From the NCBI RefSeq assembly GCF_036971445.1, contig NC_091471.1, forward strand, positions 333,064,001 to 333,128,000: a stretch of DNA of 64,000 nt. Direction: 5' to 3'. Shown here one piece after another: positions 46,549 through 54,270 of the stretch (position 1 is the first letter of the stretch; each line of letters begins with the position of its first letter). The translations under genes were made by a program, and so were the position numbers. Under the pieces are notes generated by a model. It did no database searches. It was given only the letters and a program-made list of their open reading frames with translations, and had not been told where the DNA came from. Source of the DNA: Narcine bancroftii (taxonomy: Eukaryota).

Positions 46549-46554
46549 TTTATT
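46549..46554 (-). terminator. polyadenylation signal of the putative microprotein gene
   Basis: AATAAA on the minus strand about 195 nt after the TGA at 46749. Confidence 0.6.
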
Positions 46555-46748
46555 ACAACAAATGGTGCACAAGACAGAAACGCATCAGGTAATTTAGAAA
46601 TGTTAAGGTGCATTTCACCATCTGCACTTTCCACTATTCCTCCTATTCCTTTTTGTCCACTTGATATGCCAGACCGTGGCCAGCTACAGTCCCCTGGAGC
46701 AGGATACATAGCCACTATATACTGGCACTGTTCAGCTCTTTTCCAAGC

Positions 46749-46878
46749 TCACCGAGATTTCTTCTGTTCTATTTCCAGCAGCTGCCTCTCTCTTCGTTCC
46801 AGGACTTCTTGCAACTTCTTACCGTATTTCTGCTGCTCTTTAGCACGGATCTCTTCAATGTCTGGGAGGAAACTGCGC
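46749..46878 (-). CDS. putative 70-aa microprotein, exon 2 (charged, coiled-coil-like tail)
   Basis: Acceptor gttttctgtcttgattag. (R)RSFLPDIEEIRAKEQQKYGKKLQEVLERRERQLLEIEQKKSR*. Phase matches exon 1. Confidence 0.75.
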
Positions 46879-48174
46879 CTAATCAAGACAGAAAACACTG
46901 CTGAGTCTGGCCTAGTGATCGCCCTGTGCTGCTGGTGAGCCCAGGCTGCCTGAACCCTGAGGGGTGGGGTTTGGACCCAGGGGGCAGATCTCCTGAGAAG
47001 TAGACCAGGACCTCCTTTGAGCTGCTTCAATCAGTCTCCATCTGCCAATGCATTTGTTCCTACTCATCAGGATATCTGGGAAGGACGCGTCAAATGGTCA
47101 AAGATGTGGCACAGCGTTAATAAGGCACGAGACCAGTATAGTTGGTAGCTCTCCAGGTTATAGTATAGAATTAAAATGGGTTTGGGTGGTGCTCAGTAAG
47201 AAGCCCGAAGCTGCTCACAGTACTCTGTGTGGTCTGACCCAAGCCACAGAAAGCCTCAGCATTACATCCCTCCTATTCTACCCCTCTCCTTCCTTACCAC
47301 CGACTCTACCTGTAAGTGAACCTTCAGGGAATCTTGCACGAGGACTCCCAAATCCCTCTGCACCTCTGATTTCTGAATCTTTGCCTGTTTAGAAAATAAC
47401 TGACGCCTTTATTCCTTCCATCAAAGTGTATGATCAATTACTTCTACACTGTGTTTCATCTGCCCAAATCCTCACCCAATCTCCTAACCCAAGTCCTTCT
47501 GCCTCCTCAACATCGACCTATCTTTGCATCATCCATAAACCTGGCCACAAAGCCATCAGTTCCATCGTCCAAATCACTGACATACAATGTGAAAAGAAGA
47601 TGTGCCAAGCAGAAAAGATCGCTTTTATTCCCTCTCCCCCCACCACCTCTGCCTCCTGGCAGTCAGCCAATTGTCTATCTTTCCCGTAATACCATGGACT
47701 CTTATCTCGCTCAGCAGCCTCATGTGTGGCGTGAGCTTGTCACAGACTTTGGAAAATTCAAGTAAACGTCCACTCTCTCTCCTTTCTCTGTCTTTCCTGT
47801 TATCTCCTCCAAAGAACTCCAATTAGAAATAAGGAAGTAACAAAAGGAATTAAATAGATATTTTGTATGTCTTTACCAAAACTTCCCAGAAATATTCAAC
47901 CAAGGGTCAAGGGCAAATGAAGACGACAAATTAATATTAGAAAAGAAATGCCATTGAAGTCGATCAACTTAAAAAAAATTTTTGAAAGGAGTGGAAATCA
48001 TCTTCTAAAATTTTGGATGTGATATCAAGACAGCTAGAAAACAAGTTGATGGGGCAGTTTATTGGATTATGTTCAATTGATCTAGACGACTGTCTGGAGG
48101 ACAAAGTGCTGGATGGCTCAAAACTTCCTGCAGCTAAACGAAGGCAACCTGAGATCATCCTATTTGCCTCACCC

Positions 48175-49405
48175 CCAACTCCACCAAAATGATCTCCAAT
48201 ACCCTTGGTAACTTATCCACCCTCATTAAACCACACGTAAAATCCCTTGGTGTGATATTCAATTTCACCTCCAAATTTGACAAACAAGTCGATGCAGTAG
48301 TGAAAGAAAGCTGGCTTTTTCCAGCTCCACACTATCGCCAAATTCCAATCATTCCTGTCACTTAAAGACCTCGAGAAAGTTATCCACACCTTCATTTTCT
48401 CCCGTTTAGATTACTCCAACTCCCTTTACGTGGTAATTAATCAGTCATCATTATCCCACCTGCCTCTGTCACTGGTGCAGAATGTGACAGCAAGGCTCCT
48501 AACAGGAGCCAAGAAGAGGGACCACATCAGCCCTATTCTCACCTCCCTTCAGTGGTTGCCAGTACAGCTCAGGATAGATTTTCCAGTTTTCCAGTTTTTT
48601 TTTTTTTTTTTTTACTACAAAGCCATTAGTGGACTAGCCCCCTCCTACAACACCAATCTCCTTACACCCTACTCCAAGACTCCTCAGATCAGTCAATTTA
48701 GGACGCTTGGTTGCTCCGCACTCAAGTTGCAAACTCAGGGGAGACCGCGCGTTCCCTATTGCAGCCCCAAAACTATGGAACAACATTCCTCCCGCCATCA
48801 AATCAGCCCCTTCCTTTAACTCAGTGGTTGTCAACCTTTTCTTTCCACTCACGTACCACTTTAGGTATTGCCTATGCCATCGGTGCTCTGTGATTAGTAA
48901 GGGATTGCTTAAGGTGGGATGTGGGTAGAAAGAAAATGTTTGAAAATCGCTGTTTTAATCGTACCTCATTGACTTGTTATGTGCTCGGTTTCAGAACTCC
49001 AAAGGAAATGGGCCAATGACAATTTTTCTCAAGCAAAATATTTCCATAATAATTGGGTCGAGTAGTAATTCTCAACCTTCCCTTCCCATCACAGACCACC
49101 TTAAGCAATCCCTTACTAATCACAGAGCACCGATGGCATAGGGATTACTTAAAACGGTGTGTGAGTGGAAAGAAAAAGGTTGAGAACCACTGGGTTAACT
49201 CTTAAATCCAGGCTGAAGTTGTATTTTTATTCACAAGCATTTTGAGGTGATTGTTGATTGTTGTAACCATGTTGTAGGTAGAATTCTAAACCTCGGGGAC
49301 CCGTTTTATACTGCACTTTAAATAGCTGTTTGTTAGAATATAATTTATGATTTGTACAGCACTTTGGTCAATGTGAGTTGTTTTAAATGTGTTGCATAAA
49401 TAAAC
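48175..49405 (+). mobile_element. L2-clade LINE 3' fragment, split by a MITE
   Basis: LVQNVTARLLTGAKKRDHISPILTSLQWLPV and GDRAFPIAAPKLWN motifs; L2-like tail. Confidence 0.85.
48822..49192. mobile_element. hAT (Charlie-like) MITE, 371 bp, with long inverted arms
   Basis: TIR cagtggtt(g/c)tcaacctttt, ~110-bp inverted arms, TSD ctttaact / ggttaact (6/8). Confidence 0.88.
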
Positions 49406-53085: not shown

Positions 53086-53665
53086 CTGTTGAACTGGGAG
53101 GAGGTGTGGGCACAAGTGTGACACCTCCTGCAGCTACAGGGGAAGGTCCCAGGAGGGCAATTGGTGGGGAGGGATATTGGTGGGGAGGGATGAGTGCACA
53201 AGGGAGTCACAGTGGGAGCAGTCCCTATGGTAGGCAGAGAGGGGAGGAGAAGGGAAGATGTGTCTGGTGGTGGGATCTTGTTGTAAGTGTTGGAAATTCC
53301 AGAAGACAATATGATGGATATGGAGGCTGGTGGGTTGGTAGGTTTGTTCCATCTGGGAGCAGAAGAACGGGAAATAGAGGAGATGTGGGTGAGGGCTAAG
53401 TTGATGGTGGTGGAGGGGAAGCCATGTTTGTGGAAGAAGGCTGACATTATGGAAGATCCTAGAATGGAAGACCTCATCTTGGGAACAGATGCAGCGGAGA
53501 TGGAGAAATTGAGAGAAGGGGATGGAATCCTTGCAGTGGACAGGGTGTGAGGAAGGGTAGACCAGGTAGTTGTGGGAGTTCGTGGGTTTGTAATATGTCG
53601 ATGGAAAGCTTGTCTCCCGAGATGGAGACATAGAGATGCAGAAAGGGGAGAGTGTTGTCGGAAAT
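53085..53665 (-). mobile_element. Penelope-like element, RT thumb/linker remnant
   Basis: YYKPTNSHNYLVYPSSHPVHCKDSIPFSQFLHLRCICS and PGTFPCSCRRCHTC motifs. Confidence 0.85.
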
Positions 53666-54065
53666 GGTTTTTAAATAATTGCACTATTAAATAATTGAGG
53701 AGGAATTGATGAGTAGGAGAAATCAAATGGGAGGAGGGAAAAGAATCGGGAAACCTGGAGCTGGAATAAGAGAAGGTTTCTGACTCTGACCCAGGTGGGA
53801 GGTCTGCCCCACAGTGGGTGGTCTGACCTGGAGGCTCAGCCCCGGGTGGTGGAGGGGGTCTCTGCATCAGGTGAGGGTGGAGGTGGGGAGGTCTCTGCCC
53901 CGGGTTGGGGGGAATCTGCCCCACTATGGGTGGTCTCTGACCCAGGGGGGATGGGGGGCGCCTGACGAGAGTTGATGGGATCTCAGTAAGAACGCTGACT
54001 ATACTGAGGGGCTGAACGGCCTCCCCAGCGCCGCATGCTCGGGCCCTCGACTTGCGCCGCCTTAC

Positions 54066-54148
54066 CTGTGGAGGAAACCGGCCGCCAGCACCGCCGCCAC
54101 CGCCCCGAACAACAGCGGTTTGGCCCAACGCCCGATCACTCTCTTCAT
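54066..54148 (-). CDS. putative 70-aa microprotein, exon 1 (basic N-terminus + transmembrane helix)
   Basis: gccggcgccATG Kozak context in a CpG island. MKRVIGRWAKPLLFGAVAAVLAAGFLH(R). Consensus donor CAG|gtaagg, phase 2. Confidence 0.75.
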
Positions 54149-54270
54149 GGCGCCGGCACCCTCCTTCCCCACCGGAAGTTTGTGTGTGCTGACGGCTCCG
54201 CGCATGTGCACTGAGGAACCACGTCCATGACCCGGGATGGATCACCAGGCACCGGAGCGGCATGTTCAAA
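54149..54270 (-). promoter_or_regulatory. CpG-island promoter of the microprotein gene
   Basis: ETS/GABP site accggaagt (54171-54179) and NRF1-like gcgcatgtgca (54200-54210). Confidence 0.65.

Follow-up and report, generated by a model that had tools for sequence, protein, structure and literature searches.

A spliced gene for a conserved 70-residue protein of Narcine bancroftii, predicted to span a membrane once

Is a reading frame of 70 codons, split over two exons by a long intron, a genuine gene and, if so, to which family does its product belong and what might it do? The question is raised by a locus on the minus strand of a 64,000-nucleotide window of the Narcine bancroftii genome (assembly GCF_036971445.1, contig NC_091471.1, positions 333,064,001 to 333,128,000; coordinates below count from the first letter of this window). 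A preliminary description of the window had proposed here an unrecognised gene for a single-pass, probably mitochondrial microprotein related to oxidative phosphorylation (OXPHOS) and possibly absent from mammals. We find that the gene is real: it is spliced, and it is conserved at the protein level in sturgeons, teleosts and turtles.

A spliced and conserved coding gene

The frame comprises 213 nt in total, that is, 70 residues and a stop codon (Table 1). The two exons, the splice sites and the product reported in the preliminary description were reproduced exactly, with an identical protein. The intron begins at the donor CAG/GTAAGG and ends in a pyrimidine-rich acceptor closing with TAG. 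Its earlier characterisation as 7.2 kb long and filled with transposable elements agrees with the length and repeat content found here: 43% of it matches repeats elsewhere in the DNA examined, the corresponding figure for the exons and the 3' untranslated region (UTR) being 0%. The AATAAA placed about 195 nt past the stop was likewise located, 194 nt after the TGA.

Exon 2 and the 3' UTR are partly covered by five public sequencing runs, all classed as RNA by guess; four of these runs (X1, X2, X3 and X5) were examined. In X3, from organism A, a contig joint skips exactly 7,187 nt at a depth of 1312, with 27 letters on its shorter side; the identical joint occurs in X5, from organism B and a separate study, at a depth of 58 and with 36 letters on its shorter side. 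The tool's threshold for a bridging joint is 31 letters on the shorter side, which X5 alone passes. The joint ends are CT..AC, as expected of this intron seen on the plus strand. Thus, the junction from 54066 to 46878, which had been suggested as a check on the gene, is present as an exact joint in contigs of two of the four runs, from two organisms. An unspliced contig spanning the acceptor in X3 has a depth of 20, against 1312 for the joined form, contig depth being by the tool's own warning a poor measure of expression. Two single-protein searches of the 3.33-Gb assembly returned this locus alone; the gene is therefore single-copy in the genome, and the joined form is unlikely to stem from a retrocopy. 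The organism B contig differs from positions 46549-46741 by 18 letters and 3 gap letters, which indicates transcription of the gene in another species as well.

Protein-level conservation was traced through several kinds of search. Word-based protein searches with exon 2 gave nothing among proteins of 23-74 residues and no match among 22 candidates of 75-2000 residues. A full HMMER scan with exon 2 against 1.84 billion representatives returned two matches at E<=0.001. The longer of these (P0003, of sturgeon type, with Huso and Acipenser hypothetical proteins as its cluster members) also aligns to exon 1, which was absent from the query, and so provides independent support for the pairing of the exons. 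A profile search that depended on shared 5-residue words matched 17 of 154 candidates, and none of 599 pattern matches in metagenome contigs was confirmed. Three look-ups together listed 29 relatives, including Huso huso KAK6478412.1, Perca TDG97733.1, Oryzias javanicus RVE59995.1 and Caretta caretta CAM2101920.1; 17 carry a source name (14 ray-finned fishes and 3 turtles) and 12 are without organism.

The window protein was aligned with 18 full-length relatives; these come for the most part from teleosts and otherwise from sturgeons and turtles, the 11 partial, extended or redundant ones being omitted. The window protein is 41-49% identical to each of the 18, without a gap from residue 4 to the end, the exon junction included, and 13 residues are invariant in all 19 rows: R7, K10, P11, L13, F14, G15, L21, F31, R39, E42, R56, R57 and Q60. 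Against a profile built without the window protein, the score of exon 1 is 19.5 bits, where the best of 1000 shuffles attains 5.4; that of exon 2 is 44.7 bits, where the best of 1000 attains 13.3. In a tree the window protein forms a long branch with no supported placement.

These data bear directly on whether the locus might instead give rise to a long non-coding RNA, or the frame be a product of chance. In favour of such a view, and against a spliced coding gene, no joint of 7,187 nt is listed in X1 or X2, that is, in two of the four runs. It is refuted by the conservation of both exons at the protein level, colinear over the junction, in sturgeons, teleosts and turtles, and we accord it a negligible likelihood; the claim of a conserved coding gene stands.

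The start codon had been described as having a good Kozak context, and this holds for the G at -3 and fails at +4, where there is an A; the context is good, short of perfect. A second in-frame ATG, at 54205, precedes it by 19 codons; it falls within the NRF1-like site and could add 19 residues to the protein if the transcript begins above it. Some database relatives (P0003, P0015 and P0031) also bear N-terminal extensions; these are unconserved and are probably gene-caller artefacts.

Table 1. Positions of the gene's parts, of its promoter elements and of neighbouring features in the window
Feature	Position	Strand	Basis or remark
Start ATG	54148	minus	relatives' conserved start aligns here
Exon 1, coding part (83 nt): basic N-terminus and hydrophobic segment P11-L26	54066..54148	minus	
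Intron, phase 2, GT-AG, 7,187 nt, repeat-rich	46879..54065	minus	absent from joined contigs in X3 and X5
Exon 2, coding part (130 nt including TGA): short linker and long charged helix	46749..46878	minus	
3' UTR, closing with AATAAA (46554-46549, 194 nt past the stop)	46549..46748	minus	organism B contig
CpG island over promoter and exon 1	53900..54399		island by composition
ETS/GABP-like motif CCGGAAGT	54172..54179	plus	by consensus
NRF1-like palindrome, one mismatch	54199..54210		by consensus
ATP synthase d exons	17.5 and 19.6 kb	minus	Pfam
BTB exons	27.4 and 36.0 kb	plus	Pfam
tRNA-Arg(TCG)	55424-55497	plus	own CpG island, 54940-56339

Relationship to known families of small membrane proteins

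All 19 aligned members stay below every Pfam cut-off (best E 0.064), as do single exons and relatives, and searches of PDB sequences gave only chance-level matches (best E 0.6 and 1.2). Ten families of similar appearance were then sought in the genome: Pet100, PET117, MITRAC7/SMIM20, UPF0640, DUF4516, PIGBOS1, DUF4748, ATP-synt_E, Coa3 and UQCC3. All ten have an over-cut-off match elsewhere, and none lists the microprotein locus. Since each has a locus of its own and no member reaches a Pfam cut-off, the gene is, judged by sequence, not an orthologue of any of the ten. The earlier inability to match the product to PET100, PET117, SMIM20 or UQCC6/BRAWNIN is borne out by Pfam, profile and genome tests alike, none of which gave a significant match. 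Look-alike motifs seemingly shared with PET100, BRAWNIN, COA3 and ATP synthase e failed when tested.

Nine stretches from seven of the look-alike families (COA3, ATP synthase e and UQCC3 being left out) were also scored against a profile of the new family. SMIM20 exon 1 came out best, at 5.8 bits, which 3 of 500 global shuffles and 12 of 500 local ones reach; the score of the PIGBOS1 stretch, 1.5 bits, is reached by as many global shuffles (3 of 500) and by 25 of 500 local ones. Neither score is significant over nine tests. Stretches of PET117 and PET100 do not stand out from their local shuffles, of which 248 and 377 of 500, respectively, reach the same scores, and those of BRAWNIN and SMIM4 score below zero. 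Profile comparison with hhalign gave a probability of 28% for SMIM20, over 20 columns of the transmembrane (TM) helix and with a single template sequence, and of 0.1% for PET100.

SMIM20/MITRAC7 (PF15061) is also like the new protein in its length of about 70 residues, its short N-terminus, its one TM helix with F-G near the start and its charged stretch, and it is a neighbour at 0.83 in the language-model feature (Atlas) search described below; it is the top, if weakly scoring, known family. The gene could accordingly be a distant paralogue of a known family, likeliest of SMIM20/MITRAC7, that has diverged past detection, a proposal about ancestry that is compatible with the function favoured below. 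We consider it rather unlikely: the similarity ends at the hydrophobic helix, none of the 19 members matches PF15061, and the true SMIM20 lies elsewhere in the genome, at C8:124.0-124.1 Mb on the window's own contig.

The remaining comparisons follow the same lines. PET117 (PF15786) and PET100 (PF09803) share with the new protein their size and a TM helix followed by a long helix rich in E, K, R and Q, and the shark-type PET117 of this genome has its TM segment in one exon and its tail in the next and is an Atlas neighbour at 0.87; both, however, have their own loci and shuffle-level scores. BRAWNIN/UQCC6, SMIM4/UQCC5 (which we take to correspond to PF14990 and PF15114, respectively) and UQCC3 (PF15141) are small single-pass proteins too, all three of them mitochondrial factors, but again with their own loci in the genome. 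In BRAWNIN the N-terminal TM signal stays uncleaved (PMC7066179), as is proposed below for the new protein. PIGBOS1 (PF23670), COA3 (PF09813), ATP synthase subunit e (PF05680) and DUF4748 (PF15932) combine one TM helix with a charged helix, but each is matched at another place in the genome, and neither Pfam nor PDB sequence searches tie any of them to the new protein.

On sequence grounds we therefore regard the gene as belonging to a separate family of jawed vertebrates that is without a name. All 17 named relatives are labelled 'hypothetical', 'unnamed' or 'uncharacterized', and there is no RefSeq entry among the accessions shown. The epithet 'unrecognised' applies to the family, which lacks a name, and does not extend to the sequences, since orthologues are already in GenBank and UniRef as hypothetical proteins. 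The orthologue sequences are thus public, and the family is new within a known kind, that of single-pass microproteins.

Two by-products of the genome searches concern other small membrane proteins. The BRAWNIN family (PF14990) has two loci (L033 on C27 and L034 on C23) with identical N-terminal residues; one is unbroken, whereas the other stops just past the motif next to the TM segment, as if an intron began there, and the unbroken one may be a retrocopy. The DUF4748 match over the cut-off (E 8e-11; L038, C252:148780-148899, on a small contig) marks another uncharacterised small membrane protein.

Protein anatomy and proposed function

The 19 rows, 70-81 residues long, share the anatomy that had been read from the window protein: a basic N-terminus, a hydrophobic helix of about 16 residues and a charged tail. 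The window protein has four K/R and no acidic residue in its N-terminus, and the N-termini of all 19 rows are basic, with a single acidic residue in one row. The hydrophobic segment begins at the invariant K-P, with the entry K-P-x-L-F-G, and its best 15-residue Kyte-Doolittle mean is 1.5-2.5 in every row; the tail of some 45 residues is rich in E, K, R and Q. A single-pass membrane protein is predicted. The AlphaFold model of a sturgeon member has helices at residues 8-30, 32-35 and 39-70, with a mean predicted local distance difference test (pLDDT) value of 78, which suggests a predicted arrangement of a membrane helix, a short break and a charged helix of 30 residues; at a predicted template-modelling (pTM) score of 0.37 the relative orientation of the helices is not fixed by the model. 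A Foldseek search with the model gave no match at E<=10 and is uninformative on family, and VIA-align returned generic long helices only (best Z 5.4), the two helices carrying too little fold information. The homodimer prediction score was 0.01, against a mark of 0.32.

Conservation over residues 7-66, computed for four lineages with equal weights, peaks in periodicity at 100 degrees, a value reached by 2 of 2000 shuffles, which points to constraint on one helical face. This pattern bears on the idea that the gene encodes a secreted peptide precursor, whose hydrophobic segment would be a cleaved signal peptide and whose R56-R57 would be a convertase site. Many members have small residues after the hydrophobic core, and R56-R57 is invariant in all 19 rows. 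Cleaved signal peptides, however, seldom conserve their sequence to the degree seen here, where residues 10-26 are about as conserved as the tail (0.58 vs 0.54) and include invariant K, P, L, F, G and L, and the conserved helical face continues on both sides of R56-R57. BRAWNIN was likewise mis-predicted as secretory and, according to PMC7066179, in fact resides in the inner membrane, its C-terminus facing the intermembrane space. A secreted precursor is thus very improbable.

A class of candidate relatives in function emerges from the Atlas search with the sturgeon member. The eight rows shown are all eukaryotic clusters of proteins of 56-87 residues, with scores of 0.83-0.91, and six of them carry a family: UPF0640 (on 20% of the members of the top cluster, at 0.91), PET117, UQCC3 (at 0.85), DUF4748, COX6C and MITRAC7. 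Five of these six, DUF4748 being the exception, are presumably inner-membrane proteins. The search thus suggests a consistent class, that of small mitochondrial membrane proteins, and supports no single family. Published precedents are in keeping with it: the respiratory chain is enriched in small single-pass membrane proteins, modestly hydrophobic TM segments serve as mitochondrial targeting signals (both PMC7066179), and complex IV (cytochrome c oxidase, COX) has chaperone-type factors in MITRAC7 and PET117 (PMC7582755). Given the anatomy, this neighbour class and the precedents of BRAWNIN and MITRAC7/Pet117, we propose by analogy that the protein is a mitochondrial inner-membrane protein acting as a small non-catalytic chaperone or as an accessory or assembly factor of a respiratory-chain-type complex, to which we assign a probability of about 0.5.

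Under this proposal, an uncleaved signal for targeting and anchoring would be formed by the basic N-terminus together with the helix that follows, which is short and moderately hydrophobic. The N-terminus would lie in the matrix and the tail in the intermembrane space, as is reported for BRAWNIN. The invariant residues, a stripe that starts with R7/K10/P11/L13/F14/G15/L21, continues with F31/R39/E42 and ends in R56/R57/Q60, would bind one fixed partner, in and above the membrane. A fixed binding face spanning both helices, with no catalytic site apparent, would suit such a role, and the best guess at the partner, again by analogy, would be an assembly intermediate of complex IV or III.

Several observations weigh against this proposal. 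Atlas scores below 0.9 are leads, and the tool itself deems the top family probably wrong; with exon 2 alone, the same search returned only low-scoring bacterial clusters. No sequence link to a known mitochondrial family was found by Pfam, PDB or profile scoring. Taken by halves, the periodicity is weak (78 and 106 of 2000 shuffles reaching it). Microproteins of the outer membrane and of the endoplasmic reticulum (ER) have the same anatomy. Finally, the promoter motifs and the neighbouring ATP5PD gene, both of which had been put forward as hints of OXPHOS, add little. The CpG island around exon 1 is real (at 53980-54280 the GC fraction is 0.63 and the observed-to-expected CpG ratio 0.91), and both ETS/GABP- and NRF1-like sites are present in it. 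The ETS-like motif CCGGAAGT, with two matches in the window against 0.95 expected and equalled in 23 of 100 shuffles, is by itself not above chance; the NRF1-like palindrome, which carries one mismatch, is rarer (2 of 100 shuffles reach its match). Because CpG-island promoters are a general mark of housekeeping genes (PMC7596099), such motifs are weak evidence of an OXPHOS role. As for proximity to ATP5PD, that gene is one gene away, with KCTD2 in between and a DEAD-box helicase gene on the opposite side, and provides no real evidence of function.

The shared anatomy leaves two further locations to be weighed. In one, the protein would be signal-anchored in the ER or secretory pathway, with a single pass, and would regulate a membrane enzyme, pump or translocon. 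A basic N-terminus with a hydrophobic helix is also the form of a type II signal anchor, and the C-terminus of the window protein is KKXX-like. We find this doubtful, as the hydrophobic segment is short and moderate in character, no ER family appears among the Atlas rows shown, and the KKXX, unconserved and present in 1 of 20 rows, was rejected as a retrieval signal. In the other, the protein would be a mitochondrial membrane microprotein outside OXPHOS assembly, for instance an adaptor at the outer membrane, like PIGBOS1 or mitoregulin, or a component working with a complex for import or lipid handling. The anatomy is equally compatible with this, PIGBOS1 is one of the two stretches that beat most global shuffles, and the sub-mitochondrial location of mitoregulin is itself disputed (PMC10469944). 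This, too, appears unlikely, for the PIGBOS1 stretch gains just 1.5 bits and is matched by 25 of 500 local shuffles, and the Atlas families are mostly inner-membrane respiratory factors.

Lineage distribution and genomic neighbourhood

No mammal, bird, amphibian or squamate occurs among the 17 named relatives, the searches having been limited and 12 relatives being without organism. Zebrafish, salmon and tilapia are likewise missing among the named relatives, which points to drop-out from annotation. Loss in mammals is nevertheless plausible, and slightly favoured in our view, because the small genes of human and mouse are well curated. The fuller scenario, namely that of a respiratory-chain accessory subunit or assembly factor dating from the jawed-vertebrate ancestor, which cartilaginous fishes, ray-finned fishes and turtles retained while mammals and perhaps birds lost it, is possible, if somewhat doubtful, as a whole.

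A literature search on the relatives' locus tags found no paper in main texts, supplements, which may list the gene, being outside its scope. Searches on fish-conserved small proteins, on KCTD2/ATP5PD synteny, on KCTD2 with microproteins and on microproteins 'lost in mammals' found nothing on the gene by title or abstract start, and the name of a mouse gene near Kctd2 led to unrelated literature only.

The 13 residues kept without change across sturgeons, teleosts, turtles and the Narcine lineage imply a needed role, yet the protein has neither a name nor a Pfam family. As orthologues occur in the medaka genus and in catfish, that role is directly testable in fish. At the least, the family is one that annotation pipelines miss. 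Should it indeed be a respiratory-chain factor missing from mammals, the OXPHOS parts list of vertebrates would vary by lineage, and a portion of the mitochondrial machinery of ectotherms would be out of reach of proteomics centred on human and mouse.

The BTB gene on the plus strand, taken to be KCTD2, has its stop near 42,180, and it and the microprotein gene hence converge. Across exon 2 and into the 3' portion of the intron (46400-49400), unspliced contigs specific to the locus have depths of about 20-360, falling to 4-8 past about 49,400, and a plus-strand AATAAA lies at 49399; this might reflect a KCTD2 3' UTR long enough to overlap exon 2 of the microprotein gene in antisense, although the contigs are unstranded. 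At the start of the BTB gene, 27300-27700 is CpG-rich with several CCGGAA motifs, and is probably a bidirectional promoter common to that gene and ATP5PD.

On the other side of the microprotein gene the tRNA gene is divergent from it, 1.3 kb upstream, and an Rfam scan of 44000-64000 found no RNA family besides this tRNA. Near the start of the window, minus-strand exons at 1750-6000 (L014) resemble WBP2, Pfam giving no match on the two exons tried. Toward the opposite end, a CpG island at 60600-61000 with tandem CCGGAAG repeats is followed by plus-strand DEAD-box helicase exons (L002-L006), apparently DDX41-like. Outside the window, Pfam identifies helicase exons, followed by one with a BIR domain (L006) and by a stretch resembling TAPR1 (L013).

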